Below, piece by piece: positions 1,810 through 59,910 of a stretch of DNA of 64,000 nt. Position 1 is the stretch's first letter. Each line of letters starts with the position of its first letter. Under the pieces are notes generated by a model. The model made no database searches. It saw only the letters and a program-made list of their open reading frames with translations, and was not told the origin of the DNA. Origin of the DNA: Clostridia bacterium (GTDB taxonomy: Bacteria; Bacillota; Clostridia; Christensenellales; CAG-138); NCBI GenBank assembly GCA_017524445.1, contig JAFXVP010000009.1:28702-92701 (forward strand), written 5' to 3'. A program made the translations under genes and the position numbers.

Positions 1810-2664
1810 TTATGCGCCCGGAAACTGCTGCATCAGCCTTGCGTATTCGTCCCCGCCGAGACTCCAGAGGATCTCGCTGCGGAGCGCCAGATACTTCGTG
1901 TCGCTCCGGTCGTACAGGCGTCTGCGCTCCTGCGGCGACATCCGCGCGACGAGGTTGGCGATCGTGCGGTAGTCCGACTTCGGGGCATTCACGCTGTTCT
2001 GAAGAAGCAGCGAAAGCATCGAGGATCCTTCGTCCTCCGACGCGGTCCCGCCCGAAGCCGCGCCTCCGCCGCCGCCCGAGCCGTATCCGCCGGAAAGCAG
2101 CGCGCGATACAGCGCCTGCGCAGCGTTTGTCGCCTGCTCGCGGGCGTGGTTGATCTGCTCGGCGTTGAATTCGTCGACCTCGATCTTCTTTTCCTGCTGC
2201 TCCTTCATCGCGTCGTACAGATGTCCCGCAAGCTCGGAGGCATAGTTGCTTTCGAGCGTGCTGACGTCGCGCGATTCCCCGCGATACTGACGTTCCTTGA
2301 CGTCGGAAAGATACGTGCTCTGCCCCATTCCGCGCGACCATGCGTCCGCGTCGAGCTCGGCGTTGATGCGTTCCGTCTGATCGCGGCGGTTTTGGATCGC
2401 CTGCTCATACGCCGGACGCAGCCAGTTTTTGATGGTTTCGGACAGCACGCTCTCGTCGAGCGGCGTGAACTCGACCGTTTCGGGGAGATAGTATTTCAGC
2501 ATCTCCTGAAACAGGGATTCAAACGAGGGGATGTCGGGCGTCGACCCGCCTCCCGAAGAACCGCCTCCGCTGCCGCCGGAGGATACGGGGTCCTTCGGTT
2601 TCGGCTGTTTCGGTTTCGTGACGCTGATCGGCGGCGTCAATGGATTGATGGGTAGTTTGATCAT
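1810..2664 (-). CDS. Phage-cassette protein, unknown function; positional candidate for tail needle/plug (P22 gp26 position)
   Basis: GGAAGGAG SD; start 2 nt after the preceding stop. Gly-rich linkers (SSGGSGGGSSGGGS, GGYGSGGGGGAASGG) flank a helical, charged core. Last gene before the terminator. Confidence 0.4.
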   Translation of the reverse strand: MIKLPINPLTPPISVTKPKQPKPKDPVSSGGSGGGSSGGGSTPDIPSFESLFQEMLKYYLPETVEFTPLDESVLSETIKNWLRPAYEQAIQNRRDQTERINAELDADAWSRGMGQSTYLSDVKERQYRGESRDVSTLESNYASELAGHLYDAMKEQQEKKIEVDEFNAEQINHAREQATNAAQALYRALLSGGYGSGGGGGAASGGTASEDEGSSMLSLLLQNSVNAPKSDYRTIANLVARMSPQERRRLYDRSDTKYLALRSEILWSLGGDEYARLMQQFPGA

Positions 2665-2665
2665 A

Positions 2666-2863
2666 TTATTCTCCTTCCGTTAGTTCGGCCAGTGCCGATT
2701 CGATCTCCAGAAGCTTGTTGTAAAGAAGCTCCAGATTCTGGTTCAGGTTGTTCTCGTTCTGCGCGACGCTCGAATCGTATGCGTCCCGGTCGACCGAAGC
2801 GGACGGCATGCGTCCGAGATAGACCGGAAACAGAGCCTGCATACCCGTCGGTGTGTAAGCCAT
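2666..2863 (-). CDS. Small phage-cassette protein (65 aa), coiled-coil-like C-terminus
   Basis: ATG at 2863 preceded by AAAGGAGG. The upstream M of the track ORF would overlap the preceding gene. Product MAYTPTGMQALFPVYLG...LLEIESALAELTEGE. Confidence 0.5.
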   Translation of the reverse strand: MAYTPTGMQALFPVYLGRMPSASVDRDAYDSSVAQNENNLNQNLELLYNKLLEIESALAELTEGE

Positions 2864-2877
2864 AGCCGCGCCTCCTT

Positions 2878-4308
2878 TCAGCAAGGCCGCTTCTGCTGAT
2901 CGAACAGCAGGGTCACGGGCGCGTCGAGCGTAAAGGGCTCTCCGTTCACGGAGGAAAACCGCAGGCGGAATACCCGCCCGACGCCGCGCAGCGGGATCTC
3001 GGTCACGCCGAGCGGAACGGAAGACAGGCGAATGCTCGTTTCGTACGTTCCGCCGTCGGACACGACGCGCACGCCGAGCCGTCCCTCGCCGGTCGCGGTG
3101 AGCCGCAGAAGCGTTTTATTCGTGTCCTTTCTGCCGAGATCCATCGTGGGCATGCTCCACCACACGTCGATCGGATCGCCGTCGTAGCTCGTATTGTTGT
3201 CGAACGCCGTGAGCTTGCCGGCGCCGGTCAGCATGTACAGCATGCCGTGCACGGTGCACAGGTCGACAGCGGTAAAGCCATTCCGCAGCATGAACCGGTC
3301 GCGCAGCACGTCGTACTCGATCAGGGCGTCGTTGTACGGCGCGCCGAAGCGCATGCGGATCGCAAAGTACAGCGTATCGTCGCAAGCAGCGGCGCGAACG
3401 CCGTTCAGGTTCGCAAGCTTCAGAACGGGTTCGAGCGCGCGGAACGACGCGCTTTTGCGGACGGTCTGTCCGTCGTAGAAGCAAAGCCCGCCTTCGGTCA
3501 GGAAGAACAGACGGTCCGCATAGCGCACGCAGGCGGTGTGCAGCGGCTGCCGGAACGCCGCGTCGACCTGAATGATGCGGTAGTTCCCGGGGCGATCGCC
3601 CAGGAGCCGGTAGAGCGAGTCGCGCTTGAAGATCAGAAGCTGGTTCGACATGGCGAACAGCCCCGTGATCGGATCGTCGTCCACACCGACGTCCACGTAA
3701 CCGCCGGACACGTTTTCGCTCGATTCGTCGCTGCGCCAGTCGTCGATCGTCCTGCCGCCGCCGGGCGCTTTGCTCCAGTACAGCCGCGCGGGCGCCAGCG
3801 GATCGCCGGCGGCAAACAGTCTGCCGAAGTACAGTTCGACGTAGCTGACTTTCCGATCGGACTGCTTTTCCGCCATTCCGAATACATCGACCTCGTTCGT
3901 TGCCGCGTCAAACGTCAGCATCGGTTCGGTCCCGCACGCGATCAGCAGCCGGTCCGCCGTGCCGATGCGCACCTTCAGGAAATCCATGCGTTCGCCGGTG
4001 ACGCCGCGTTCGAACTGGTACAGCATCCGCCACGTATGCGTCGGTTCGTTGTAGTAATACATCGCGTCCTGCGCGACGGCGATGTACCTGCTGCCCTGTT
4101 CGGTCGCGTAGACATACATCCGTTCAAACGGCGTATCGGCCGTGACAAGCTCCGGCACCGCGCGGGAAAACCCGGACGCGGCGCGCAGCGCGCCGGTGCG
4201 TGTATCCGCATTGCAGGCGTCCGGGCTCATGTCGGGTTTCAACAGCCCTTCCGAAAGATCCATACGCACGCTGCCGAACGAGGGAAGCGAAACGGTCTGA
4301 TATGCCAT
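2878..4308 (-). CDS. Phage structural protein, beta-rich repeat (propeller-like) architecture; positional candidate for tail hub (P22 gp10 position)
   Basis: GGGAGG SD. 476 aa with 6-7 recurring hydrophobic beta-strand blocks (MYYYNEPTHTW, RLLIACGTEPMLTF, RLFAAGD, LLIFKRDSLYRL, RLFFLTEGGLCFYDG, TLYFAIR, MLYMLTGAGKLTAF). Confidence 0.5.
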   Translation of the reverse strand: MAYQTVSLPSFGSVRMDLSEGLLKPDMSPDACNADTRTGALRAASGFSRAVPELVTADTPFERMYVYATEQGSRYIAVAQDAMYYYNEPTHTWRMLYQFERGVTGERMDFLKVRIGTADRLLIACGTEPMLTFDAATNEVDVFGMAEKQSDRKVSYVELYFGRLFAAGDPLAPARLYWSKAPGGGRTIDDWRSDESSENVSGGYVDVGVDDDPITGLFAMSNQLLIFKRDSLYRLLGDRPGNYRIIQVDAAFRQPLHTACVRYADRLFFLTEGGLCFYDGQTVRKSASFRALEPVLKLANLNGVRAAACDDTLYFAIRMRFGAPYNDALIEYDVLRDRFMLRNGFTAVDLCTVHGMLYMLTGAGKLTAFDNNTSYDGDPIDVWWSMPTMDLGRKDTNKTLLRLTATGEGRLGVRVVSDGGTYETSIRLSSVPLGVTEIPLRGVGRVFRLRFSSVNGEPFTLDAPVTLLFDQQKRPC

Positions 4309-4321
4309 AGCCGCCTCCCTT

Positions 4322-4858
4322 CTACCACCGGCAGGTGATCTGATAATCGGTCGGCTCGTCCAGATCGAGCTTCAGACGGCGCTTGCGCGTTTCGTACAGC
4401 GACATCGCCGCGGACGCGTGGTTCAGTCCCTGCGCGTCGTTGATCAGCGAGAAGCGTCCGACCATGTACAGAACGATCAGCGGATGACATGCCGCGGGCA
4501 GCTCAGGCTCGTCGTCATCTTCGACAAGCGTTTTCGGCAGATACCGGTAGACGACGGTCATCATCCCGTCCTTTACCCCGGGCACGCGCAGCACGTTCGT
4601 ATCCGCATCGAAGCAGAACGGAACGCGCATGCCGCTGCGCTCCACGCCAAGCACCTTCGCGACCGTGTACGGAAGCGCCGAAAGGTCGAGTCTGCCGTTT
4701 TCAAGCGGCAGCGGATCGCGCCGCCACGGGTGAAACGTCTCGTATAGATCGACCACCGCTTCGTTCGCGAACCGCAGAAGCTTTTCCTGCCAGAGCGGCA
4801 GCGCCGCCGTGTCTTCCGGATGGTCCAGCTCACCGAGCGCGCTTTGTATCAATTCCAT
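4322..4858 (-). CDS. Phage head-completion / head-to-tail adaptor candidate (178 aa)
   Basis: Internal ATG at 4858 (MELIQSALGELDHPED...); the Arg-rich upstream part of the track ORF overlaps the 86-aa gene. Position after the capsid gene; size is like P22 gp4. Confidence 0.45.
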   Translation of the reverse strand: MELIQSALGELDHPEDTAALPLWQEKLLRFANEAVVDLYETFHPWRRDPLPLENGRLDLSALPYTVAKVLGVERSGMRVPFCFDADTNVLRVPGVKDGMMTVVYRYLPKTLVEDDDEPELPAACHPLIVLYMVGRFSLINDAQGLNHASAAMSLYETRKRRLKLDLDEPTDYQITCRW

Positions 4859-4872
4859 GACCGTCACGGCGC

Positions 4873-5133
4873 TCACCCGATCTTTCTGCCGCCTGCGCCG
4901 GTAAACGCTTCGACGTCGCGGCTGCTTGCCCGCATCCCTCTGCGGCTTTCGGCGATCACGTCCGCGATGCGCTTCGGAAGCTCCACGACCGTATCGGTCG
5001 GGATCCGGAAGTTCACGCCGTTCAGCGCGCCTTCCAGGAACGCTCCCGTACCTTCGGAGGGTATGTACACGGAAACCCGTGCTTCTGTTTCTGCTCCGTT
5101 TTCCATCGGAGCGATCATTTCCTTCTGTTTCAT
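4873..5133 (-). CDS. Small phage-cassette protein (86 aa) downstream of the capsid gene
   Basis: AAAGGAGG SD before the ATG at 5133. No family recognised. Confidence 0.5.
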   Translation of the reverse strand: MKQKEMIAPMENGAETEARVSVYIPSEGTGAFLEGALNGVNFRIPTDTVVELPKRIADVIAESRRGMRASSRDVEAFTGAGGRKIG

Positions 5134-5187
5134 TCGGGTCCTCCTTTTCTGCGGGGGAAGGGTTCTCCCTTCCCCCTGTCTGTTTCG

Positions 5188-6396
5188 TTATGCCGAGACG
5201 CCGTGCTCGATGCGCACGATCCACAGCGGGTTCAGCACCTTTGCCGCGTACGCCGTGACCTTGGCGCCGACCGTTGCGCGCTGATTGAGCGGATCGCCGC
5301 TGCCTTCGCTGCCATGCGGCTTGATGATCGTTTCCATCGTGCCGGAACCGTCGACGTCGATCACGCCGTATGCGTCTGCGCCGAATACCAGTGTTGCGTG
5401 GATGTCCGCCGCCTTTTCATTCTGATCCAACGCGCCCGCATCCTGGGTGTAGAACGCGTCGATCGTGCCATAGGTGATCGAATCCTCGAGCGTCAGCGTG
5501 TTCGTTTCCTCGTTGTAGGACGCGATCGTGATGAGATCGCCGTCATAAAACAGCGTGTTCCCGGGAACCGACAGGTATTTGCGTGCCTCTTCACTCGGAA
5601 TCGTCGCGAACGTTACGTTGTGCGTTGCCGAGCCGCTGCCCGTTTTTGCCTTCAGATAAACCGTCTGACGGTAGACCTTCGCTTCGGTCGACTCGACGAA
5701 GACCACGCCGAACAAGCGTCCGATCTCGCCGGTGTAGATCTGCTCCGCGTTGCTGTACTTAGAAACGTCCTGCCAGAGCGGATCGTTCTGCAGATCGAAG
5801 GTCGCGTCCGGCGAGCAGATGCAGACAAAGTGCGGACGGCGAACGGAGCCGTCGGCGCCGGTCGTGAACATGCGCGCCTTGTTCTTCTTCAGCGTGCGGA
5901 CTGCCTTGCGGATCTCCGCAACGGTCAGCACGTCCGTCTTGCCGAGATCCATACGTCTCGTCTTGCCGTTCGCGTACTGGACGTTGGTGGTCGCGCACAT
6001 CGCGTCGCGCGTGACCCATTCGATCACAGTGCCGAGCTGTTCGCCCAAAAGTTCCGCGGAATCCGCGAGCACTTCGTCATACGCGGTGAGATCGAGCAGA
6101 TCGCTGACCTCGACGTACGCGCCGTACTGACTGACCTCCGCTTCCACGTTGGACTGCGAGAGCGACTGACCTTCCGGCGTAACGCCTTCCACAAGCGTCA
6201 GAGAATCGACGTCGGGCGTAAAGAGATTGTACTTGCGGAACTCCACGCGCTTGCCGCCGTGCCGCGGAATGCTGCGCTTCTGTCCGAAGCTTGCGTGGAC
6301 GAGCCGCGTCTTTGCGGTCTCCAGGAGCTTCTTGTCATAGAACTGCTTGTTGAAATATGCACCGGATACGGTGTTCAGGGTTGTATTGATAGCCAT
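5188..6396 (-). CDS. Phage major capsid protein, N4-gp56-like family (HK97 fold)
   Basis: N-terminal signature FYDKKLLETAKTRLVHASFGQKRSIPRHGGKRVEFRKY ... LVEGVTPEG ... QYGAYVEVSDLL matches my recollection of the N4-gp56 capsid family. 402 aa, directly after the scaffold gene. Confidence 0.8.
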   Translation of the reverse strand: MAINTTLNTVSGAYFNKQFYDKKLLETAKTRLVHASFGQKRSIPRHGGKRVEFRKYNLFTPDVDSLTLVEGVTPEGQSLSQSNVEAEVSQYGAYVEVSDLLDLTAYDEVLADSAELLGEQLGTVIEWVTRDAMCATTNVQYANGKTRRMDLGKTDVLTVAEIRKAVRTLKKNKARMFTTGADGSVRRPHFVCICSPDATFDLQNDPLWQDVSKYSNAEQIYTGEIGRLFGVVFVESTEAKVYRQTVYLKAKTGSGSATHNVTFATIPSEEARKYLSVPGNTLFYDGDLITIASYNEETNTLTLEDSITYGTIDAFYTQDAGALDQNEKAADIHATLVFGADAYGVIDVDGSGTMETIIKPHGSEGSGDPLNQRATVGAKVTAYAAKVLNPLWIVRIEHGVSA

Positions 6397-6408
6397 AGGT
6401 TCCTCCTT

Positions 6409-6831
6409 TTAGATCTGGACTCGTTTGCCGCTTCTCGCAGCGTTTCTGTACTGTTTTTCAAGCGCCGAAAACGCTTCCCTCGACATGGACATGTAGTCCG
6501 GCGTCGGCGCTGCGGCGCGGTCGGTGCGCTGGGACTTCGGAAGCTGACTGCGGCTTCTTGCCTGCTCGCTCATGCGGGTCTTCACGCTGTTCTCCGCCTC
6601 GTCGGCGCGCTTTTCTGCGGCATAGATGCGGACGGCCGCCTTCGGCTCGAATTCCTGCAGAAGCTCCGCGAACGCGCGGTCCTGCACCGCTGCCTGCAGG
6701 TCAAAGCCCTCGGGCAGCTCGCCGTTTTGTTCCATTTCGACCAGGGCGTTTGCCGCTTCGATGAACGGATTTTCCGCTTCGGTCTCCGCCGGATTCGTCA
6801 CAGCGGGTGTCTCTTTCTTTTTGAAGATCAT
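6409..6831 (-). CDS. Phage scaffolding protein candidate (140 aa, acidic/helical)
   Basis: Lies between portal and capsid. GGAGGT SD; ATGA overlap with the portal stop. Charged, helical composition. Confidence 0.55.
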   Translation of the reverse strand: MIFKKKETPAVTNPAETEAENPFIEAANALVEMEQNGELPEGFDLQAAVQDRAFAELLQEFEPKAAVRIYAAEKRADEAENSVKTRMSEQARSRSQLPKSQRTDRAAAPTPDYMSMSREAFSALEKQYRNAARSGKRVQI

Positions 6832-8441
6832 AAATTACCTCCGAATCGTTTCTTCTTCATTCGTTCGGGAAACAGCGGTTCTTCCTCCGCCGCCTCCCTG
6901 ATGTGTTTCAGTACCTGCTCCTTGCCTTCAAAGGTCATCAGCGAGATCGCCTGCTCCCGGTTGACCGCGCCCATGGACAGCAGGTTCATCATGAGCTCGT
7001 TCTGCGCCGCGCTTGCGAAGCGATTGCGCTTCACCGCCTTGATCGAGATCAGAAACTCGACCGGAAGCACCGCGCCGCCCGGCGCGCTCTTCAAAAGTAC
7101 GTCGCTGTCGAACAGCACCTCCTTCGGTTCGCCGTCGACGGTGATCGTCACCGGACGCAGGAAGCAGTTGAACTCGCGCTCCGTTTCGATCTCGAGCCGC
7201 ACCGCTTCGCGGAACGCCTCGTGCATCTGGTCGGTCGCCATCCGCGCGCGCTTGGTGCTCATCTCCTGCAGCGCTTCGATCGCGCGCGCCGCGGTCACGC
7301 CGCCCGGCGCAGCCCCGCGGGATGAATCGTTTGCGCCGCTTTCCTCCTTGATATCCTCGCGGATCGCGCGGATGTAGGAGAGCAGATAGTCCGGCAGCGG
7401 CGCGGTGGACATCCACGTGACGCCGTTCAGGCTTTCGCCGGTGTGCACGTCCTTGGACCAGTCGCGAAGGTCGTCCGGGTCGAAGCCGGACGCGTCCGTG
7501 ACGAGCAGCTTGTTGCGCGACGCCAGAAACGCGTTTTTCAGCACAAGCTGGTCGAGCTTGTCCGCATAGAGCTGCTGCGTGCCGAACAGGTCGACGATGC
7601 CGAAGCCGAGGGCGCTTCCCTTTCGCGGGTAGAGCGTCGTCAATACGAACGGATATCGACCGTGTGCAAAATAGCCCTCGGGCTTCACGTCGCGGCTGTC
7701 CTCGAGCACGACGCCGTTAGAAAGCAGCGCCATGTGCACGCGATACGCATCCTCGTCCGCGTCGTATTCGCGCCGCCAGTATTCGATCAGAAGACAGGCG
7801 TTTTTCGGGTCGGGCGAAAGGATCTCGTCGGTGATCAGCTCCGCCGTGTCGATCGGGCGGGACTCGATCAAAGGATACAGGTCGGGATAGTGCGTTTCGA
7901 TCCACGCCTTCGGACGCAGCGCAAGCTTGAACACGGCGCGCCCGTCCTGAAGATCGGTGACCAGCGGATCGATGAGGATGCTGCGGACGTCGACGTGGCG
8001 GATGAACGCCCCGCCGAGGCCCCCGTTTTCGGTGCTGTCGTAGCCGACTTCCTGCACACAGTAGCCGCTGACCAGAAGGTCGTGGATCATGCGGCGGTAC
8101 TCGACCGGGTATGCGGCGGCGTCGTGGTTTCGGCGGATGACCGCGTCGATGACCTGCGCGGCATAGGCGTCCGCCGCGCTTTCGGGCGTAATGACCGCCT
8201 CCGGCGTCTGATCCGCGAGGTCCGCGGACACGTTTTCGATCGTGGACTGCAAAATCGGCGTGACCGGGCGCGGCTCGTTCGGATCGGTCACGGGCACGTC
8301 GTACCAATGCTCCCCGCGATACATCCGCTCATTGTGCTCCTGCCGCCGCCACTCGTTCACGTATGCGTTGCGGAACTCGTTGAACAGCGCAGTCGCTTCT
8401 TCGGCTAACCGCCGTTTGGTTTCGGATTGTCTTGGTTTCAT
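6828..8441 (-). CDS. Phage portal protein
   Basis: About 537 aa, immediately after terL. The start at 8441 (MKPRQSE..) has an AGGAAAG SD. An alternative ATG at 8462 has no SD and abuts the repeat. Confidence 0.8.
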   Translation of the reverse strand: MKPRQSETKRRLAEEATALFNEFRNAYVNEWRRQEHNERMYRGEHWYDVPVTDPNEPRPVTPILQSTIENVSADLADQTPEAVITPESAADAYAAQVIDAVIRRNHDAAAYPVEYRRMIHDLLVSGYCVQEVGYDSTENGGLGGAFIRHVDVRSILIDPLVTDLQDGRAVFKLALRPKAWIETHYPDLYPLIESRPIDTAELITDEILSPDPKNACLLIEYWRREYDADEDAYRVHMALLSNGVVLEDSRDVKPEGYFAHGRYPFVLTTLYPRKGSALGFGIVDLFGTQQLYADKLDQLVLKNAFLASRNKLLVTDASGFDPDDLRDWSKDVHTGESLNGVTWMSTAPLPDYLLSYIRAIREDIKEESGANDSSRGAAPGGVTAARAIEALQEMSTKRARMATDQMHEAFREAVRLEIETEREFNCFLRPVTITVDGEPKEVLFDSDVLLKSAPGGAVLPVEFLISIKAVKRNRFASAAQNELMMNLLSMGAVNREQAISLMTFEGKEQVLKHIREAAEEEPLFPERMKKKRFGGNL

Positions 8442-8462
8442 TGTCTTTCCTTTCCATTTCAT

Positions 8463-8686
8463 TTTTCATGCGCCGCAGGCGCAATGCATGCCCACAGGGC
8501 AATTCACGTCCCGCAGGGACAATTCATGCGGCGCTGCCGCAATTCATCCATCCGCAAAAGCTTACGCTTTTCAGCGTGCCCACCTCATCCGCTTCGCTCA
8601 CGCTTCGGCACCTTCCCCTCAAAGGGGAAGGCTTGTTTCAAGGCTTCTCCTTGAGGAGAAGCTCCGCCGCAGGCGGTGATGAGGTG
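8463..8686 (-). repeat. Mosaic hairpin repeat (CACCTCATC/GGGGAAGG modules plus four RTGAATTG-hairpin units) in the terL-portal spacer
   Basis: Hairpins at 8470-8482, 8490-8500, 8508-8520, 8528-8540, 8611-8631, 8645-8660 and 8664-8676. Outer stem 8581-8589 pairs with 8678-8686. The same composite occurs at 59745-59905. Confidence 0.85.
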
Positions 8687-10018
8687 TCACAGTCCCCGGA
8701 AGCCCGGATTCGTCACCGGCGCACGGGACAGCGGATCGTAGCGGTACGGCTTTCTGCGTTTCTCCTGCGGCGCGGGGCGCGGACGGCTCATCAGCCCGTA
8801 GCGCAGCGCTTCCGGCGCGTGGTCCTCGCAGTTATCCGCGACGTCCTCGCAGTCGTGCACGTCGAAGGTCAGCGTCGGCAGCGTGCGGATGAGATTACGG
8901 CAGGTCTCGAAGATCGATAGCTCCGGCGTGCCGTCCGGACTCTTGGCAAGCGCTTCGCGAACGCGCTGCCAGCCCGGCACGCGGGCGTTGTCCGCCGGGA
9001 TCAGCGGCACGCCGTTGTGACTGAACACCTCCGCAATGCTCTCCCCCTCCGCGCCCTTCAGCCCGCGCTGCTGCCAGGCGTCGGGCGAAGCGACGGTGTA
9101 GGCGATGCGCTCGCCCTCGGAGAGCTTTTTGACCCGCCTTGCGATCTCGCTCGAAAGCGTCTTTCGAAGGTACAGCTCACGGTAAACGTACAGCTTTCCT
9201 TCCGGTGCGACGGCAAACCACAGCACGCAGCACGGATCGTTGTAGCCCCAATCCATTGCGCGAAAGCGCTTCCACTCCATCGGGAGCCGCGTTGGGCTCA
9301 TTACGTGCAGGCTGCGGTCGAACTCCTGGAAGAACTGTCCTTCGAGGACGTCCCAGTTGCCGTCCAGATACGCTTTTCTGAGATGCTCCGGCAGGTTCTC
9401 GAGCGTTTCGAGGTATTGCGGATCCGTCCGGAGAAGCACCGGGTTGTCGGTGACCCGCGCCGGGATGAAGACGTAATCCGCCGCACGCTCGCTGTTGCGG
9501 TAATCGCGGTCGATAAACAGCCGCTTGACCCACGCGTGTCCCACGCCGCCGGGGTTGCAGGTGTAGTACATGCGCGGCGAAAAGTCGGCGCGCACCGAGC
9601 GGTTGCAGGTGGTCAAAAACTGCATCTGCGTCTCGGTAAAGTGTGTCGCCTCCTCGAGCCCGATCACGTCGTACTCCTGTCCCTGATACTGGAACACGTC
9701 CGCTTCGCGGTCGCAGTAGCCGAGCTTTATCCGGCTGCCGTTCGGGAACAGGAACGCGCGCTGCGTCGCCTGATAGGTGACTGCGCCGTTCAGCTCCCTT
9801 TGCAGCGGCAGCACGTGGTTCTCGTTGAGCTCCGGCAGCGTCCGGCGCAAAAGCAGGAGATTGAGCCCCGCATAACGAAAGGCAAGGAGCACGAACTTCC
9901 GGCGCATCGCCCACGACTTGCCGCCGCCGCGCGCGCCGCCGTAGGCGATATGCCGCGCATTTGCAAGAAAGAACTGTTCCTGTTTCGGGTTCGGCGTACC
10001 CTCTAAATGCAGGATCAT
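8687..10018 (-). CDS. terL: Phage terminase large subunit
   Basis: Start MILHLEGTPNPKQEQFF at 10018, overlapping the terS stop (ATGA). Walker A AYGGARGGGKSW; C-terminal nuclease-like DCEDVADNCEDHAPEALRYGL. Confidence 0.9.
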   Translation of the reverse strand: MILHLEGTPNPKQEQFFLANARHIAYGGARGGGKSWAMRRKFVLLAFRYAGLNLLLLRRTLPELNENHVLPLQRELNGAVTYQATQRAFLFPNGSRIKLGYCDREADVFQYQGQEYDVIGLEEATHFTETQMQFLTTCNRSVRADFSPRMYYTCNPGGVGHAWVKRLFIDRDYRNSERAADYVFIPARVTDNPVLLRTDPQYLETLENLPEHLRKAYLDGNWDVLEGQFFQEFDRSLHVMSPTRLPMEWKRFRAMDWGYNDPCCVLWFAVAPEGKLYVYRELYLRKTLSSEIARRVKKLSEGERIAYTVASPDAWQQRGLKGAEGESIAEVFSHNGVPLIPADNARVPGWQRVREALAKSPDGTPELSIFETCRNLIRTLPTLTFDVHDCEDVADNCEDHAPEALRYGLMSRPRPAPQEKRRKPYRYDPLSRAPVTNPGFRGL

Positions 10019-10407
10019 TTCGAGAACCTTTCCGCCGCGTCGTCCAGAACGATCTCTATCTGACCGTCCGCTTGTGTCGCCGTCCCGGAAAGCCCCATCC
10101 CTTTGAGCGCTTCGAGCGCCGACTGGTAATTGAGCTCGCCGAGCAGCGCCCGCTCGAGCGTAAAGGCTGCGATCTTCAGAACAGCGTCGCGCAGAAGCGT
10201 CTCCTCTTTGGAGCAGCGTCCGGTGTGAAACGCCGCAAGAACCTCCTCCGGCGTCAGCCGCACCGCCCGCGCAAGGCCGAACAGGGTGTAGGGGATCTGT
10301 CTCTCTTCGATGCCCCCGTTTTTCAGCTCGCGACGCTCGCGCGTTGCGTCGCAGGCCGCAAAATACGCCCCGATCGCGCTGTTCATTCGTTCCGTCCGCT
10401 TGTTCAT
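10015..10407 (-). CDS. terS: Phage terminase small subunit
   Basis: Start MNKRTERMNSAIGAYF at 10407 with a GGGAGG SD. The IPYTLFGLARAV motif is typical of small terminase subunits. Immediately upstream of terL. Confidence 0.7.
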   Translation of the reverse strand: MNKRTERMNSAIGAYFAACDATRERRELKNGGIEERQIPYTLFGLARAVRLTPEEVLAAFHTGRCSKEETLLRDAVLKIAAFTLERALLGELNYQSALEALKGMGLSGTATQADGQIEIVLDDAAERFSK

Positions 10408-10435
10408 GTGTGCCTCCCTGCCTTTCGTTGAACAC

Positions 10436-10444
10436 AGCATAGCA
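10436..10444 (-). promoter_or_regulatory. Possible extended -10 promoter (TGCTATGCT) for the terS operon
   Basis: Reverse complement of 10436-10444 is TGcTATGCT, about 30 nt upstream of the terS ATG. No good -35. Confidence 0.3.
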
Positions 10445-10453
10445 CAAAAACTT

Positions 10454-10508
10454 CGGACAATTTTCCCGGAATTTTGCCCGATTTCAGAGCAGCAAAAAGC
10501 GCCGTCGG
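10454..10508 (+). repeat. 55-nt direct repeat, copy A (left flank of the AlbA_2 gene)
   Basis: CGGACAATTTTCCCGGAATTTTGCCCGATTTCAGAGCAGCAAAAAGCGCCGTCGG; about 50 of 55 positions identical to 12139-12192. Confidence 0.85.
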
Positions 10509-10534
10509 AACAATTCTGCCGAAGTAAGAAAGCA

Positions 10535-10563
10535 TTGTAATCATCTCCGTTTTTTGGTATACT
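10535..10563 (+). promoter_or_regulatory. sigma-A-type promoter TTGTAA-17-TATACT (TGG extended)
   Basis: TTGTAA at 10535-10540, 17-nt spacer ending TGG, TATACT at 10558-10563, about 27 nt upstream of the 10591 ATG. Confidence 0.6.
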
Positions 10564-10590
10564 GACTGTGGAGATGTTCGGAGGTGCGAA

Positions 10591-12066
10591 ATGATCGATC
10601 TCAATCATTTGGAACAATATAGGGAAAACAACCGAATCGAGGCAAAGAAAGCCGCAGGCGGCCTTCCGCAGAGCATTTGGGAAACGTACTCCGCGTTCGC
10701 AAACACGCTTGGCGGGATCATTCTGCTTGGGGTAGAAGAACATCCCGATAAATCTCTCCATGCGATCCATCTCCCGGACCCCGAAAAGCTGGTTAAAGAT
10801 TTCTGGGACGCCGTCAACAATCCCAATAAAGCCAGCGTGAATATCCTTTCAAGCAAAGACGTTACGATCGAAGCCGTCGGCGAGGATCGCATCGTCGTCA
10901 TCAACGTTCCGCGGGCGGATCGCTCCTATAAACCGGTTTTTGTGGACGGCAATCCTCTGAACAGCTATCGGCGCAACGGCGAAGGCGATTATAAATGCAC
11001 GTCCGATGAGCTGCACGCCATGTACCGGGATGCGTCCGTCAAAACACAGGACATGCTCGTGCTGCAGGAAATGCGTCTCGACGTCATCCATGCGGAAAGT
11101 CTGCGCGCCTATCGACAGCGGATGCGCCTCAGCAGACCGGGACACGTATGGGATACTTTGGATGATGAGCAGTTTTTGATCAAGCTCGGCGCCGCTGCGA
11201 TCGGCGAAAACGGTTCTGTTCATCCTACTGCGGCAGGTCTTTTGATGTTCGGAAACGAATCCGATATTGTCCGTGAATATCCGCGCTATTTCCTGGACTA
11301 TCGGGAAGAGTATGACGACGTTCATCGGTGGACGGATCGGGTCATTTCTTCTTCCGGAGACTGGAGCGGCAACGTCTTCGATTTCTATTTCCGGGTCTAT
11401 AACAAGCTTCAGCTCGATTTGAAAGTTCCCTTTGAAATGAACGGTATTTACCGCGTCGATGATACGCCTGTTCACGGAGCGTTGCGCGAAGCGTTGGCGA
11501 ACTGCCTGGTCAATGCCGATTATTACGGCCGTCAGGGGTTGGTGATCATCAAAAAGAAAGACGTCATTACCATGACCAATCCGGGTGATTTCCGTATCGG
11601 TCTGTCCGCCGCGCGTTCCGGCGGCGTGTCCGACCCGCGAAACGGCACGATGATGAAAATGTTCAACTTGATTGATATCGGCGAACGTGCAGGCAGCGGC
11701 ATTCCGAACATCTTCTCCGTCTGGAAGCAGCAGGGTTGGAGCGATCCGACAATTCTGATCTCCTCGGAACCGGATCGCAGCACGCTCATTTTGCCGCTGA
11801 TTCAACATTATTACGCAGATGCAGCGACAAAAAGTAGCGATAACAAAGAAAATAGCGATAAAAAAGTAGCGATAAAAACAGAAAGAAACAAGAACGCCAT
11901 CCTTGCTTATCTGACGGATCACGCGTCTGCAAAGGTATCTGACTTTGAACCTTTACTCGGCATTAAAGCCGCACGCATTCGGCGTTTGCTTTCGGAAATG
12001 ATCGCCGACGGCGTTGTTGTCGCAGAAGGTGCCAACAGGAATCGTACCTATCGGCTGAAAAGCTGA
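10591..12066 (+). CDS. AlbA_2 (Schlafen-like) + HATPase_c_4 (RecG C-terminal-like) + C-terminal wHTH protein; putative DNA-binding ATPase/regulator
   Basis: N-terminus ENNRIEAKKAAGGLP..AFANTLGGIILLGVEE; middle REALANCLVNADYY...NPGDF...SDPRNGTMMKMF..IGERAGSGIPNIF; C-terminal wHTH (ILAYLTDHASAKVSDF..RRLLSEMIADGVV). GGAGG SD. Visibly lower GC than the flanks. Confidence 0.8.
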   Translation: MIDLNHLEQYRENNRIEAKKAAGGLPQSIWETYSAFANTLGGIILLGVEEHPDKSLHAIHLPDPEKLVKDFWDAVNNPNKASVNILSSKDVTIEAVGEDRIVVINVPRADRSYKPVFVDGNPLNSYRRNGEGDYKCTSDELHAMYRDASVKTQDMLVLQEMRLDVIHAESLRAYRQRMRLSRPGHVWDTLDDEQFLIKLGAAAIGENGSVHPTAAGLLMFGNESDIVREYPRYFLDYREEYDDVHRWTDRVISSSGDWSGNVFDFYFRVYNKLQLDLKVPFEMNGIYRVDDTPVHGALREALANCLVNADYYGRQGLVIIKKKDVITMTNPGDFRIGLSAARSGGVSDPRNGTMMKMFNLIDIGERAGSGIPNIFSVWKQQGWSDPTILISSEPDRSTLILPLIQHYYADAATKSSDNKENSDKKVAIKTERNKNAILAYLTDHASAKVSDFEPLLGIKAARIRRLLSEMIADGVVVAEGANRNRTYRLKS

Positions 12067-12138
12067 CAGAAAGGCACGGCGGCTTTCGATATAAACGGGC
12101 GTTCGGCACCTCCGGTCGGACGCCCATTATCATTCGAT

Positions 12139-12192
12139 CGGACAATTATCCCGGAATTTTGTCCGATTTCAGAGCGAAAAAAGCGCCGTCGG
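12139..12192 (+). repeat. 55-nt direct repeat, copy B (right flank of the AlbA_2 gene)
   Basis: CGGACAATTATCCCGGAATTTTGTCCGATTTCAGAGCGAAAAAAGCGCCGTCGG; same orientation as copy A. Confidence 0.85.
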
Positions 12193-28020: not shown

Positions 28021-28082
28021 AAATGCAGAATGTAGAATGCAGAATGTAGAATGAATGAAGATTTTCCGCCGGAAAATCATCC
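28021..28082 (-). repeat. TGCATTC-heptamer / GATTTTCC-hairpin repeat element (minus orientation)
   Basis: The reverse complement GGATGATTTTCCGGCGGAAAATCTTCATTCATTCTACATTCTGCATTCTACATTCTGCATTT matches the units at 45184-45306. Confidence 0.8.
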
Positions 28083-43482: not shown

Positions 43483-45185
43483 ACGCAAAAGAACGCTATG
43501 CACTCTGGATGAACAGTCCCGACATCGACGAACAGACCAAGGCGGAGCTTGTCTCCATCAAGGACGATCCCAACGAGATCGAGGAACGCTTCTATACCGA
43601 GCTCGAATTCGGTACGGCGGGTCTCCGCGGCATTTTAGGCGCGGGTGACAACCGCATGAACATCTACAACGTCCGCAAGGCGACCGAGGGGCTTGCGCGC
43701 TACCTCGACGAGAACGTGAACGGCACGGCGCGCGTGTGCATCGCGTACGATTCGCGGCATTGCTCCGACCTCTTCGCCAAAGAGACCGCGTGCGTGCTCG
43801 CGGGTCACGGTGTGCACGTCTATCTCTATTCCACGCTGCATTCCGTGCCGCAGCTGAGCTTCACCGTGCGCGAGCTCCATTGCGACGCGGGCGTGGTCGT
43901 CACGGCAAGCCACAACCCGCCGAAGTACAACGGCTACAAGGTCTACGGCCCGACCGCGGGGCAGGCGACGCCGGAGCTGGCAAACGAGATCACCAAGCAC
44001 ATCCGTGCGGTCGAGGGCTTCAAAACCGCATACAAGCCGTATGACGAGGGGATCAAGGACGGCACGATCGAGCTCATCGGCAGGGACGTCGACGAGATCT
44101 ATTACGCAAAGACCATGTCGCTTCTGACGCAGCCGGAACTCGTGAAAGAAAAGGGCAAGGACCTTAAGATCGTCTATACCCCGCTGCACGGAAGCGGCAA
44201 CGTGCCCGTGCGCGAGGTATTGAAGCGCATCGGCGTCACGAACGTCACGGTCGTCAAGGAACAGGAAGCGCCGGACGGCAGCTTCCCGACGGTCAAGGCC
44301 CCGAACCCCGAGGATCCGAACGCGTTCACGCTCGCGTTTCAATACGCCGAGAAAGTCGGCGCGACGGTCATCATCGGCACCGACCCGGACAGCGACCGGC
44401 TCGGGCTTGCGGTCAAAAAGACCGACGGCGACTGGGCGGTGCTCTCCGGCAATCAGATCGGCGCGATCCTGATCCACTCCCTGCTTTCGAGTTACAAGGC
44501 GACCGGCAAGCTGCCGGAGAACGGTTTGGTCGTCCGTTCGATCGTGTCTACGCAGCTTGCGGACGCGATCTGCGCGAAATTCAACGTGACGCTGCATGAA
44601 GTTCTGACCGGCTTCCGCTTCATTGCGGAGGAGATCGCAAAGTGCGAAGAGACGCACGAACACACGTTCCTGTTCGGCTTTGAAGAAAGCTTCGGCTTCC
44701 TCGCCGGGACCTCCGTGCGCGACAAGGACGCGATCTGCGCGGCGATGCTCGTCGCGGAGGCGTGCGTGGTGTATCAGCAAAAGGGCATGACGCTGTACGA
44801 CGCGCTGATGGAGATCTACGAAACCTACGGCTTCTACCGCGAAAAGGTCAAGTCCTACACGCTCGAGGGCAAGGCGGGCATCGAGGCGATCCAGAACGCG
44901 ATGGCGCTTCTCCGCAAGGATCCTCTCTCCGAAATCGCGGGCACGCACGTAAACAAGGCCGAGGATTTCAACAAACCCGAAGAAACAGGCCTGCCGCGCT
45001 CGAACGTGCTGCGCTATACGCTTTCGGACGGCGCGTGGGTCACGGTGCGTCCCTCCGGCACGGAACCGAAGCTGAAGCTCTACATCGGCGCGCACGAAAA
45101 GACCGACGCAAAGGTACAGGCGCGGCTCGACGAGATCATGAATGACATGGACGCAAAGCTCGCTTCCCTTCTGGGAATCAAATAA
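43479..45185 (+). CDS. Phosphoglucomutase / phosphomannomutase family protein
   Basis: Active-site TASHNPPKYNGYK, metal site GTDPDSDR, GFEESFG motif; 568 aa. Confidence 0.9.
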   Translation: MNAKERYALWMNSPDIDEQTKAELVSIKDDPNEIEERFYTELEFGTAGLRGILGAGDNRMNIYNVRKATEGLARYLDENVNGTARVCIAYDSRHCSDLFAKETACVLAGHGVHVYLYSTLHSVPQLSFTVRELHCDAGVVVTASHNPPKYNGYKVYGPTAGQATPELANEITKHIRAVEGFKTAYKPYDEGIKDGTIELIGRDVDEIYYAKTMSLLTQPELVKEKGKDLKIVYTPLHGSGNVPVREVLKRIGVTNVTVVKEQEAPDGSFPTVKAPNPEDPNAFTLAFQYAEKVGATVIIGTDPDSDRLGLAVKKTDGDWAVLSGNQIGAILIHSLLSSYKATGKLPENGLVVRSIVSTQLADAICAKFNVTLHEVLTGFRFIAEEIAKCEETHEHTFLFGFEESFGFLAGTSVRDKDAICAAMLVAEACVVYQQKGMTLYDALMEIYETYGFYREKVKSYTLEGKAGIEAIQNAMALLRKDPLSEIAGTHVNKAEDFNKPEETGLPRSNVLRYTLSDGAWVTVRPSGTEPKLKLYIGAHEKTDAKVQARLDEIMNDMDAKLASLLGIK

Positions 45186-45306
45186 AGGAGGATTTTCCCC
45201 CGGAAAATCTACCTGCATTCTGCATTCTGCATTCTACATTAAAAAGGAGGATTTTCCCTCGGAAAATCTACCTCCATTCCTCATTCTGCATTCTGCATTC
45301 CACATT
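45184..45306 (+). repeat. Two tandem units (57 and 66 nt): SD-like AAAGGAGG + GATTTTCC-hairpin + (TGCATTC)n TACATT
   Basis: 45184-45240 and 45241-45306 align over nearly their full length. Each unit has an 8-bp hairpin GATTTTCC-NNN-GGAAAATC followed by 3-4 heptamers. Located between the pgm stop and the deoD SD. Confidence 0.85.
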
Positions 45307-49059: not shown

Positions 49060-49290
49060 CATATGAATTCTTCGTCGCTGCGCTCTAGATTCTTCGTCGC
49101 TTCGCTTAAGATTCTTCGTCACTGCGTTCCTCAGAATGACACCGTGTGGTGCGCACCTCAGAAAGACAAACCAACCTTGATGTGTAATCCTGAGCAAAGC
49201 GAAGGATCTTGCGAAGCGAAGGATCTTGCGAAGCGAAGGATCTTGCGAAGCGAAGGATCTTGCGAAGCGAAGGATCTTGCGAAGCATAGG
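49060..49290. repeat. Left repeat flank of the GIY-YIG gene: three forward ~21-nt units, CCTCAGAATGAC, then five perfect 17-nt tandem units (49199-49283)
   Basis: GAATTCTTCGTCGCTGCGCTC / TAGATTCTTCGTCGCTTCGCT / TAAGATTCTTCGTCACTGCGTTCCTCAGAATGAC, then (GCGAAGGATCTTGCGAA)x5, which is approximately the reverse complement of the forward units. Confidence 0.9.
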
Positions 49291-49300
49291 AAACACTTCT

Positions 49301-49585
49301 ATGAATCATTATTACGTGTACATCCTCACAAATTGGAATAACAAGGTCATGTACATCGGTGTGACCGGGAACCTGCTTCGCCGATTATACGAGCATAAAA
49401 ACGGCGTTTATGAGGGATTCACGAAAAAGTATCACGTTCATAAACTGGTCTACTTCGAGGAAACATCGGATGTTTACGCAGCCCTGACACGTGAGAAGCA
49501 ATTGGAGGGGTTGCTTCGCAGCAAAAAGAACGCATTGGTCGAGACAATGAATCCCGACTGGCATGATTTGAGTAAAGATTGGTAA
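49301..49585 (+). CDS. Small GIY-YIG nuclease family protein (UPF0213-like)
   Basis: MNHYYVYILTNWNNKVMYIGVTGNLLRRLYEHKNG contains the GIY and YIG motifs; 94 aa. The upstream part of the track ORF is repeat-derived. Confidence 0.85.
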   Translation: MNHYYVYILTNWNNKVMYIGVTGNLLRRLYEHKNGVYEGFTKKYHVHKLVYFEETSDVYAALTREKQLEGLLRSKKNALVETMNPDWHDLSKDW

Positions 49586-49865
49586 TAAGATTCTTCGTCG
49601 CTTCGCTCTAGATTCTTCGTCACTGCGTTCCTCAGAATGACACAAAGGGATGCGCTCCTCAGAATGGCATACCCCCTCGCTGTGTAATCCTGAGCATAGC
49701 GAAGAATCTTGCGTAGCGAAGGATCTTGCATAGCCGAGGGATCTTGCGTAGCGAAGAATTCTGAAAAATTCTTCGTCGCTCCGCTCAGGATTCTTCGTCA
49801 CTGCGTTCAAGATTCTTCGTCACTGCGTTCAAGATTCTTCGTCACTGCGTTCCTCAAAATGACAT
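49586..49865. repeat. Right repeat flank of the GIY-YIG gene: forward units, reverse units, and a palindromic centre, followed by three 22-nt tandem units
   Basis: Re-uses the left-flank modules (AGATTCTTCGTCACTGCGTTCCTCAGAATGAC at 49609-49641; TGTGTAATCCTGAGCA). Palindrome GCGAAGAATTC-TGAAAA-ATTCTTCG near 49751-49776. (AAGATTCTTCGTCACTGCGTTC)x3 at about 49787-49852. Confidence 0.85.
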
Positions 49866-50118: not shown

Positions 50119-50907
50119 TCAGAGCAGGCGGTAAAGCGCAAGGAAGGTCTCGGGCGAAAGCGTTTCCGCGCGGGTCTCCGGTGAAATGCCGAGCGCTTCC
50201 AAAGCGTTTTCGGCGTTTTTGTACGCTTTGAGGTTATTTTTGATCGTCTTCCGCCGCATGGAAAGAAGTCCTGTTGAGAACGCGAACAGCGCCTTCGGAT
50301 CGACGTCCGGCGCGTCCGCTTTTTTCGTCATGCCGACAAAGACCGACTGCACGTCCGGGCTCGGAAAGAAGCAGTCCTGCGGGAATTGCGCAAGCGTTTC
50401 CGCGTCATAATAAAGCTGTGTAAGGATCGAAAGCGGTCCGTAATTGTCGTCTTTCGGCGCGGCAAAGAAACGGTCTGCCGCCTCCTTCTGCACCATGCAG
50501 TAAAACGACGCGGGCAGCGCTTTCAGAACGGCCGTGCAAAGCGGCGTCGTGATGTAGTACGGCAGATTGCCCACGACCGAAAACGGCTTTTCGACCTCCG
50601 CGTAACGAAATTTCTGCGCGTCAAGCGTTTGGACCGAAAGGTTCGGATGCGGCAGCGATTTTTGTAAAAAATCCGCCATCGCCGCGTCCTTTTCGACCGC
50701 GGTAACCGAAACGCCCTTTTCGAGCAAAAGTTCGGTCAGTCCGCCGAGGCCGGGTCCGATCTCGATCACGGTTTTTGCGAGCGTCATTTGTTCGACGCAG
50801 GTAAAAAGCCTTTCGCCGTCGACGCAGAAATTCTGCCCCAGCGCGCGGTTCGGGCTTGCGTGCATTTCGTTCAATGCGGTTTTGACAAATTCGATGCTTG
50901 CTCTCAT
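50119..50907 (-). CDS. rsmA: 16S rRNA (adenine1518/1519-N6)-dimethyltransferase
   Basis: Start MRASIEFVKTAL at 50907. QNFCVD, IEIGPGLGGLTE and VVGNLPYYITTP motifs. The rest of the 949-aa track ORF is antisense to feoB. Confidence 0.9.
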   Translation of the reverse strand: MRASIEFVKTALNEMHASPNRALGQNFCVDGERLFTCVEQMTLAKTVIEIGPGLGGLTELLLEKGVSVTAVEKDAAMADFLQKSLPHPNLSVQTLDAQKFRYAEVEKPFSVVGNLPYYITTPLCTAVLKALPASFYCMVQKEAADRFFAAPKDDNYGPLSILTQLYYDAETLAQFPQDCFFPSPDVQSVFVGMTKKADAPDVDPKALFAFSTGLLSMRRKTIKNNLKAYKNAENALEALGISPETRAETLSPETFLALYRLL

Positions 50908-51001
50908 GCGCGCAGTATAGCATATTTTTCCGCGCGCCGCAAGGTATAGCGCGGCATGCGCCGGGCACAATAACGGAAAAGAACCGAAAGGAGATGCGCA
51001 T

Positions 51002-51253
51002 ATGAAACGATTCTTTTTGATTCCGGTGCTTGCGTTGCTTTTCGCGCTTGCCGGCTGCACCTGTTCCGCGAGCGGGAAGGTCTCGACGCCGACCAAAGCG
51101 CCGACGGCAAAACCGACGGTTAGCGCGGCGCCGATCGTAACGCCGCAGCCCACGATGAGCGCCGCCCCGACGGAAACGACCGCGCCGGTCATGCCGACCG
51201 AACCGATCGTCTCGCCCTCCGCGGGCGCGAGTGCCGGGACGGGCAATCCGTAA
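51002..51253 (+). CDS. Small Pro/Thr-rich lipoprotein (83 aa)
   Basis: Signal peptide with lipobox LFALAGC, then a low-complexity PT/A-rich chain. Own terminator. Confidence 0.6.
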   Translation: MKRFFLIPVLALLFALAGCTCSASGKVSTPTKAPTAKPTVSAAPIVTPQPTMSAAPTETTAPVMPTEPIVSPSAGASAGTGNP

Positions 51254-59654: not shown

Positions 59655-59910
59655 GCGAGCGGACGGGCAATGCCCGTCCCTACCGTCCTGCCACCGCAAG
59701 CGGTCCGGATCACACTCCGCTTCCGCTTCGTTACATAGGAAGATCGCGCGACGAAGGCGTGACGGATGAGGTGGACACGCAGAAAAGAGATAAGCTTTTC
59801 ATGAATCAATGAATTGCGCCGGCGGCGCATGAATTGTCCCTGCGGGACTTAAATTGTCCTTTCGGACATGAATTGGCTTGCGCCGTGAATTGTGCCTGTC
59901 GGCACGGGAA
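59655..59910 (+). repeat. Mosaic hairpin repeat: GGGCA hairpin, CTTCGTTACATAGGAAGATCGCGCG, GATGAGGTG, AAAAG hairpin, five RTGAATTG-hairpin units
   Basis: GGACGGGCAATGCCCGTCC hairpin. Module at 59726-59750. GATGAGGTG at 59765-59773. Units from 59807 to 59905, including ATGAATTGTCCCTGCGGGAC (59829-59848), which is identical to the reverse complement of 8508-8527. Confidence 0.85.

Follow-up and report, generated by a model that had tools for sequence, protein, structure and literature searches.

What is a set of phage head and neck genes doing in a bacterial chromosome when no gene for replication, lysogeny or integration stands among them? The question is raised by a locus of a Clostridia bacterium (CAG-138, Christensenellales; assembly GCA_017524445.1, contig JAFXVP010000009.1, positions 28,702-92,701). 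We analysed this whole stretch of 64 kb, here called the window, and all positions below follow its numbering. Between 1810 and 10407, on the minus strand, lie ten tightly packed co-directional open reading frames (ORFs) that make up an 8.6-kb phage head/neck cassette; none of the ten has a replication, lysogeny or integration function. A preliminary description of the locus had offered four readings, namely a domesticated particle resembling a gene transfer agent (GTA), a capsid-forming satellite, a recently truncated podovirus prophage, and a prophage with its other arm to the left of position 1. Our results favor the first. We consider it probable that the cassette represents the central operon of a GTA-like "viriform", domesticated from a podovirus, that has become fixed in the chromosome of rumen and gut Christensenellales.

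The ten ORFs are exactly those returned for this interval by a codon-usage-scored gene caller. The gaps between them range from -4 to 54 nt, with the exception of the terL-portal spacer (224 nt); terS and terL, as well as portal and scaffold, overlap by 4 nt, and GGAGG-type Shine-Dalgarno sites precede most of the starts; overlaps and ribosome-binding sites agree with the preliminary description. For comparison we scanned one genome per GTDB species, which yielded 189 matching stretches, and the best 80 of the 189 were taken with their flanks as loci (labelled L001 and so on).

The operon opens with terS (10015-10407, 130 aa), assigned as the small terminase subunit from its slot, its 4-nt overlap with terL and a sub-threshold match to GP3_package, the family of P22 gp3 (27.7 bits, under the cut-off of 29.4). 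Its motif AYFxxCDxTxER...PYTLxGL is kept in an alignment of 18 species. The large subunit, terL (8687-10018, 443 aa), matches Pfam Terminase_3/6N and phrog_979 (E=1e-51), carries an intact Walker A motif (GGARGGGKS) and is 68-94% identical across loci. The portal (6828-8462, 544 aa) is recognized by P22_portal (E=2.5e-21), SU10_portal and phrog_156 (E=1e-48), although the gene call on the source contig and a better Shine-Dalgarno site favor a start at 8441 (537 aa). Between portal and capsid lies the scaffold-position protein (6409-6831, 140 aa), for which no Pfam family was matched. The major capsid protein (5188-6396, 402 aa) belongs to the N4-gp56 family (TIGR04387, 260 bits against a cut-off of 60, matched in two stretches; phrog_1357, E=1e-69) and, when mapped against phage capsid proteins, has an insertion of ∼85 aa at about residues 246-330. 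The slot between capsid and adaptor is taken by a conserved protein of 86 aa (p86, 4873-5133), found in 77 loci. Then follow the head-to-tail adaptor of the SU10 type (4322-4858, 178 aa, or 184 aa from the GTG at 4876; PF24175 SU10_adaptor, 33.6 bits against a cut-off of 27), a tail nozzle or hub of 476 aa (p476, 2878-4308), a highly conserved protein of 65 aa (p65, 2666-2863; in 79 loci, identity 54-98%) and a virion-type protein of 284 aa (p284, 1810-2664). The C-terminal half of p65 has the look of a coiled coil and, judged from its position only, the protein may be a nozzle plug. Going by these assignments, the ten products include all that is required for a head filled with DNA and its short neck, namely terminase, portal, scaffold, capsid, adaptor and nozzle, to which three virion proteins, small or helical, are added.

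For three of the products, comparison with PDB chains at the sequence level was uninformative, both with single sequences (476- and 178-aa proteins) and with profiles (476-, 284- and 178-aa proteins), and the nozzle was assigned from an AlphaFold2 model built from 42 homologues and compared with the PDB by Foldseek. The model of p476 (pLDDT 90, pTM 0.90) shows a beta-propeller and a beta-sandwich and matches the Pa223 tail (E=8e-26, TM 0.81) and P22 gp10 (8eap_D, E=1e-16); further matches are VP1, SU10, Sf6 gp8 and T7 gp12. By its modelled structure p476 is a podovirus nozzle of the gp10 fold. The last protein is more difficult. Alignment shows a disordered Gly-rich N-terminus, a long alpha-helical hairpin with an invariant loop (DADAxSRGMGxS), a Gly-rich linker and a small C-terminal helical domain, and the AlphaFold2 model reaches pLDDT 77 and pTM 0.43. 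Foldseek gave nothing below E=1 for this model, and neither it nor the PDB profile search detected a needle like gp26, helical proteins being hard to match; chains from T7 tail complexes in the DNA-ejected state gave weak, non-significant hits, which were not used. Distant homologues of p284 occur only in ∼40-kb podophage contigs, directly before a giant protein of 2909 aa, and some orthologues carry an N-terminal PG_binding_1 domain. We infer that p284 is an internal, ejection-type or wall-contacting virion protein.

These assignments bear on the likeness to the late operon of Salmonella phage P22 (3-2-1-8-5-4-10-26) that had been proposed for the cassette. The order from terS to the nozzle, the P22_portal family and the gp10 fold of the 476-aa protein bear it out. 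It is loose for the 178-aa protein, which is of the SU10 type and not gp4, and it fails for the 284-aa protein as a counterpart of gp26. Moreover, the capsid is of the N4-gp56 type as opposed to gp5, and the cassette has neither a tailspike nor the trio of ejection proteins.

Could the cassette simply be one arm of an ordinary, intact prophage that extends outside the window? All that speaks for this is that the window ends at position 1. The source contig is 154 kb long, and to the left of position 1 it continues with the rest of a hydrolase gene, an alaX-like gene, an efflux carrier, lpd, lplA and gcvPHT; no phage-like gene was found on that side, nor any integrase, attachment (att) site or early gene. 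On the other side, upstream of terS, there is only an AlbA_2 gene followed by ddh and cob genes, so that, as had been noticed, no early or lysogeny region adjoins the cassette, and in composition the cassette is host-like (GC 0.618 vs 0.597; GC at third codon positions, GC3, 0.77 vs 0.80). With core metabolism on both sides, an undetected second arm has next to no probability.

A second possibility is that the cassette is the decaying remnant of a podovirus prophage whose other arm has been lost and which has no present function. Here the comparison between species is decisive. The 80 loci are mostly labelled Clostridia, Christensenellales, Christensenellaceae or unclassified Clostridia and come from rumen, gut and digesters, complete chromosomes of 3-4 Mb included; relatives of the capsid run into the thousands, graded in identity from 99% to 67%, on long chromosomal contigs. 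Ten genes in the same order and of nearly the same sizes are found in about 70 of the 80. Among the 55 loci that span the cassette, 44 have all ten ORFs intact. Clear splits or truncations are seen in four of the 55 (p476 in L039 and L064, terL in L075, p284 in L012), which would suit decay and may as well be assembly errors in metagenome-assembled genomes (MAGs); the other seven of the 11 non-intact loci comprise five with only a short terS call, one with a short p284 and one without a p65 call. Ratios of nonsynonymous to synonymous substitution (dN/dS), taken over 11 species pairs from several clades, lie between 0.02 and 0.43 in nearly all gene comparisons, a single terS comparison reaching 0.52. 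Even the small genes conform, with 0.06-0.52 for terS, 0.06-0.41 for p86 and near 0 to 0.42 for p65. A remnant would hardly keep the same gene boundaries in about 70 species, such ratios down to ORFs of 65 and 86 aa, a conserved promoter and leader, and a cassette more conserved than its housekeeping neighbours; we give this explanation very little credit.

The flanks consist of housekeeping genes that differ between clades and are stable within them. In some 14-20 species of Christensenellaceae, for instance, the cassette has a decarboxylase-holB-yaaT-ferredoxin block on one side and a DAG kinase-cvpA block on the other. In a set of 14 species, the more alike two species are in their flank proteins, the more alike they are in the proteins of the cassette (Pearson r=0.95, a value computed over pairs that are not independent), and the cassette is more conserved than the flanking housekeeping proteins, 84% vs 75%. 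The host-like GC and GC3, and an intergenic repeat of the host found within the operon, are in line with vertical descent. On these sequence comparisons the cassette has been inherited vertically and kept under purifying selection since the ancestor of many species. Taken together, the same intact genes in dozens of species, the selection acting on them and their co-divergence with the flanks lead us to reject the recent remnant, the satellite and the ordinary prophage alike; the cross-genome comparison that the preliminary description had called for, with its clade-conserved flanks and low dN/dS, told against its truncated-prophage reading, and the continuation of the contig did the same for the supposed left arm.

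The satellite deserves a closer look. Capsid-forming phage-inducible chromosomal islands (cf-PICIs) are small islands with their own terminase, portal, scaffold and capsid and no complete tail, and depend on a helper phage for tails, fibres and lysis; a set of head and packaging genes free of fibre and lysis genes is superficially of this kind. However, a cf-PICI is a mobile element: it brings an integrase, regulators and a replication module and is excised on induction by a helper, and nothing of this kind is present at the cassette. No integrase, alpA-type regulator, primase/replicase or att site was found within 10 kb on either side. Moreover, the cassette holds a fixed chromosomal position and co-diverges with its flanks over many species, and it encodes its own adaptor and nozzle, so that a siphovirus or myovirus tail taken from a helper would have nowhere to attach. 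A capsid-forming satellite is therefore a highly improbable explanation.

If the cassette is neither a phage nor a satellite, is there a known system that it resembles? For a long time GTAs were known almost only from Alphaproteobacteria. Those of Rhodobacter (RcGTA), Caulobacter and Bartonella share with the cassette a chromosomal head and packaging cluster, vertical inheritance, purifying selection and the lack of self-replication, and they too have accessory genes at other loci in a variable multi-locus layout. They are siphovirus-like, with an HK97-type protease and capsid of unrelated sequence, whereas the cassette is podovirus-like, with a scaffold, an SU10-type adaptor and a nozzle.

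A much closer counterpart is FpGTA of Faecalibacterium prausnitzii, the first podovirus-like GTA to be published, which is encoded by two operons (Nat Commun 2026, PMC12946183). Operon I, of 10.5 kb, has ten ORFs: terS, terL, portal, a gene in the scaffold position, an N4-gp56 capsid, a small unknown, adaptor, nozzle (Foldseek match 8eap), a small protein that was not detected and, at the end, an abundant protein of low-complexity type (PMC12946183). Operon II encodes baseplate, fibre and receptor-binding protein (RBP), holin and endolysin, and the particles are ∼40 nm, have a tail-less look and contain ∼8.5-9 kb of host DNA, their authors leaving delivery open (PMC12946183). Compared by function, our cassette is likewise a chromosomal operon of ten ORFs in the same order (annotation of RCH50844-50852); the capsids bear the same NCBI family name (RCH50849.1; TIGR04387, N4-gp56), the nozzles share the P22 gp10 fold (8eap being cited for RCH50846.1), replication and lysogeny genes are absent from both, and both hosts are Gram-positive gut anaerobes of the class Clostridia. 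A fibre/lysin/holin module found in relatives of the window's organism can be set beside operon II. The two differ in the bacterial order concerned and in size (8.6 kb vs 10.5 kb).

The same study reported GTA-type packaging, with reads of 4-7 kb, in Christensenellaceae MAGs from human faecal particles; the locus was not named, and the locus search was restricted to Faecalibacterium, Gemmiger and Subdoligranulum (PMC12946183). Our literature search found no paper with such a locus in Christensenellales. The locus is new for this order and would be a further member of the kind already known from FpGTA.

Is there, then, a counterpart of operon II? A second operon with baseplate, fibre or RBP, holin and endolysin genes is not in the 64-kb window. 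The statement of the preliminary description that no lysis function is visible was nevertheless too strong. The gene convergent with the cassette, on the plus strand at 1-1482 with its start to the left of the window (571 aa), had been listed as a cell-wall hydrolase, and that peptidoglycan hydrolase can now be described more closely: it combines four PG_binding_1 domains with NlpC/P60 and matches PHROG endolysin families (E=1e-43), an endolysin-type architecture. This hydrolase also lies near the cassette in L008, L011, L012, L015, L016 and L027. Whether this enzyme is the lysin of the system is uncertain, and we treat it as a candidate. Its Pro/Thr/Lys-rich linker (897-1042) is built from imperfect tandem repeats of 12-60 nt, and its relatives are 544-639 aa long.

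In L025 and L022 a fibre-like gene and an NlpC/P60 lysin lie directly upstream of terS, L025 having a Phage_holin_4_1 holin as well, and in L081 a lysin and a holin follow the last cassette gene. The genes for a BppU_N fibre, a lysin and a holin interrupt the cassette in L074, L079 and L080, where those for portal and terminase do not adjoin it. Judging from these relatives, fibre, lysin and holin genes appear to belong to the system.

The arrangement of this last group can be followed in L080 (460-12225): scaffold, capsid, p284, the BppU_N fibre (620 aa), an NlpC/P60-SH3 lysin and the holin, then an EamA transporter on the opposite strand, and finally adaptor, nozzle and p65. Such a multi-locus layout resembles that of the classical GTAs. 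In another clade (L054, L056, L058, L061, L069 and L077) the cassette begins at the portal, with terS and terL not found within 7 kb upstream, and an extra conserved gene of ∼208 aa stands between p65 and the p284 homologue; the terminase genes of this clade must be elsewhere or have been replaced. A capsid 46% identical to that of the window occurs in L091 (9230-14161; GCA_964319085.1) in a mini-locus of five to six genes, namely a 202-aa gene, the capsid, genes of 498, 219 and 71 aa and a holin, between aromatic-amino-acid and other housekeeping genes. Possibly this mini-locus is one piece of yet another GTA-like system with dispersed genes.

Where did the cassette come from? In a neighbour-joining tree, which carries no bootstrap values, the cassette capsids are monophyletic, and podophage contigs of ∼40 kb make up their sister group. 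In the phage loci L087 and L088 the order is portal, scaffold, capsid, small protein, SU10-type adaptor, nozzle, fibre, lysin, p284 homologue and giant protein, and the identities to the cassette are 64-65% for the capsid core, 35% for the nozzle, 34% for the scaffold, 33-35% for p86 and 30-39% for the p284 core. Within the 273-aa protein at the scaffold position of L087, it is the C-terminal part that the scaffold of the cassette matches, and the counterpart of p86 is a 120-aa protein in the same slot. Cultured relatives, which at 35-47% capsid identity are much more remote, are Paenibacillus phage API480 and the Page-like podophages of Bacillus megaterium. Compared with the cassette, L087, L088 and the prophage L094 add a DUF859 fibre, a lysin, a holin, a giant protein of 2.9 kaa and early genes, and the scaffold, nozzle and portal of the phages, at 273, 557 and 620 aa, exceed their counterparts in the cassette in length. 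The cassette looks like the head/neck module of such a podophage, minus the fibre, lysis, giant-protein and early genes and with a shortened scaffold.

The insertion of ∼85 aa in the capsid was considered as a mark of domestication and rejected, as about half of the related capsid representatives carry it; L087 and L088 are without it, whereas the capsid of L094 has one. L094 (5631-21248) is a true prophage within a 694-kb contig, with terS, terL, portal, scaffold, capsid, small protein, adaptor and nozzle followed by a DUF859 fibre, a CHAP lysin, a holin, a 244-aa protein and a polyvalent protein of 2889 aa (ART-PolyVal, LPD38). It is a useful outgroup for reconstructing what was lost on domestication.

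A broader proposal can be formulated: an order-wide family of podovirus-derived GTAs, arising from one ancient domestication of a ∼40-kb podophage in an ancestor of the Christensenellales, maintained ever since over a very long period as a ten-gene core with a movable fibre/lysis module, and being either sister to FpGTA or the outcome of an independent domestication. For this proposal we see even chances.

How would such a system be expressed? The ten genes make up a single transcription unit, which has a conserved leader and a terminator of its own. The leader and promoter region (10408-10508, minus strand), as defined by an alignment of 12 species, contains a GAAAT..TG.CAAAAT box, an extended -10-like element (TGnTATGCT) and a GGGAGG Shine-Dalgarno site; the ∼100 nt nearest terS are 88-92% identical among close species and conserved across the 12. 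A canonical -35 element is absent from the leader in this alignment, and no repressor gene is adjacent to the cassette. The conserved -10-like element without a canonical -35 suggests that a dedicated activator or sigma factor acts there. The strict pattern of a palindrome-like sequence upstream of terS is not kept in relatives. A GC-rich hairpin detected by a hairpin search in the spacer between capsid and p86 (5153-5176) may be an attenuator or a stabiliser of the mRNA. At its far end the operon stops at a bidirectional intrinsic terminator (1773-1798) with an 11-bp stem and T-runs on both sides, in keeping with the strong terminator described there before.

According to our hypothesis, a host regulator would turn on the cassette promoter in a subpopulation of cells, and small capsids would assemble on the portal with the help of the short scaffold. 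TerS and TerL would then package host DNA, more or less at random and by a headful mechanism, in pieces of a few kb, and the adaptor, the nozzle and the 65- and 284-aa proteins would close the portal. Receptor-binding fibres together with holin and endolysin supplied from elsewhere, or the adjoining PG_binding/NlpC-P60 hydrolase, would complete and release the particles, which may carry DNA into related cells. The steps of this argument do not carry equal weight. That the cassette is domesticated we regard as very probable; that particles filled with host DNA are produced is, by analogy with FpGTA, a reasonably good expectation.

Several points weigh against a GTA-like function and call for caution in its interpretation. 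First, purifying selection is evidence of function, not of which function. Secondly, in the 64-kb window we found no receptor-binding protein, fibre, holin, tailspike, ejection protein or extra structural gene. Thirdly, the likeness to FpGTA is one of function, capsid family and nozzle fold; the fourth gene of FpGTA is Prp-like (RCH50850.1, NCBI name), and the Prp family was matched by 0 of 21 orthologues of the scaffold-position protein. Short assembled stretches that match the capsid gene and further genes of the cassette exactly do occur in metatranscriptome assemblies of sheep and bovine gut, but as a sign of transcription these are weak, being patchy and possibly due to DNA carry-over, and among virome-labelled runs none with host DNA was found for this genome. 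The dependence among species pairs behind the correlation of cassette and flanks and the missing bootstraps of the capsid tree count on the same side.

These reservations bear most directly on one further possibility, that the cassette was domesticated for another end, such as regulated lysis with release of extracellular DNA, a killing or decoy particle, or interference with phages. Selection and vertical inheritance leave the function undefined, the authors of FpGTA leave delivery open, and a receptor-binding gene is missing from the window, all of which would suit such an end. On the other hand, terS, terL and portal are intact and strongly constrained, which argues that DNA packaging itself is selected, and the nozzle, the adaptor and a putative ejection-type protein have been kept, which are needed for delivery and not for lysis. 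On balance we think a different purpose unlikely, and the GTA-like viriform remains the reading that we prefer.

The consequences of that reading are considerable. The cassette, with its clear evolutionary marks of domestication, is a concrete candidate for the packaging in Christensenellaceae and would explain what has already been observed. If the order-wide family is real, capsid-mediated exchange of host DNA would be a lasting trait, maintained by selection, in major Clostridia of gut and rumen, and the locus behind the GTA-type packaging of Christensenellaceae would have been identified. If the particles deliver DNA, they would constitute a major uncounted route of gene flow, resistance genes included, in livestock and in the human gut. 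The ten genes also provide a defined experimental target. The loci with the fibre/lysis module attached to the cassette, inserted in it or detached from it form a natural series, and the close free-phage relatives allow the path from phage to host organelle to be reconstructed.

The immediate upstream neighbour of the cassette has a history of its own. The AlbA_2/HATPase_c_4 gene (10591-12066) has a GC content of 0.52 and is bracketed by a direct duplication of 56 bp (10453-10508 and 12138-12192). The lower-GC gene and the repeat had been noticed before, the latter as a 55-bp repeat without its bracketing role. The closest relative, L005, has no AlbA_2 gene and a single copy of the repeat, that is, an empty site, and the AlbA_2 gene is consequently a more recent arrival, inserted between ddh and the promoter of the cassette. 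Contigs from an RNA-labelled run (X27) contain an empty-site joint (10463 to 12149) as well as a joint that goes back (12105 to 10411), and the latter could reflect a circle or a tandem copy. Taken as a whole, these features suggest a small single-gene mobile cassette that inserted ∼50 nt upstream of terS.

The remaining observations concern repeats in the window. The terL-portal spacer holds tandem hairpin units of 19-20 nt (8473-8526) that recur at 59809-59875, so that the host-type hairpin repeat reported for this spacer is present. Each unit is a short GC hairpin followed by ATGAATT, with the consensus ATGAATTGTCCCTGCGGGAC; the two spacers are intergenic and unrelated, and the units look like a host-specific family of intergenic repeats. 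Runs of the heptamer AATGCAG/CTGCATT at 28022-28053 and 45184-45299, the latter containing a 59-nt unit twice, are a further type of intergenic repeat common to distant spacers. An Rfam search over the window returned tRNA only. Finally, a region of GC 0.45 upstream of rsmA/ksgA (49067-49852) contains four tandem arrays, two with 22-nt units (49067-49126 and 49768-49852) and two with 17-nt units (49197-49285, with 5.2 perfect copies, and 49697-49759). The low-GC gene that follows (50119-51246) was considered as an erm gene and this was ruled out, as it encodes RsmA/KsgA, here with an unusual N-terminal extension of ∼130 aa.

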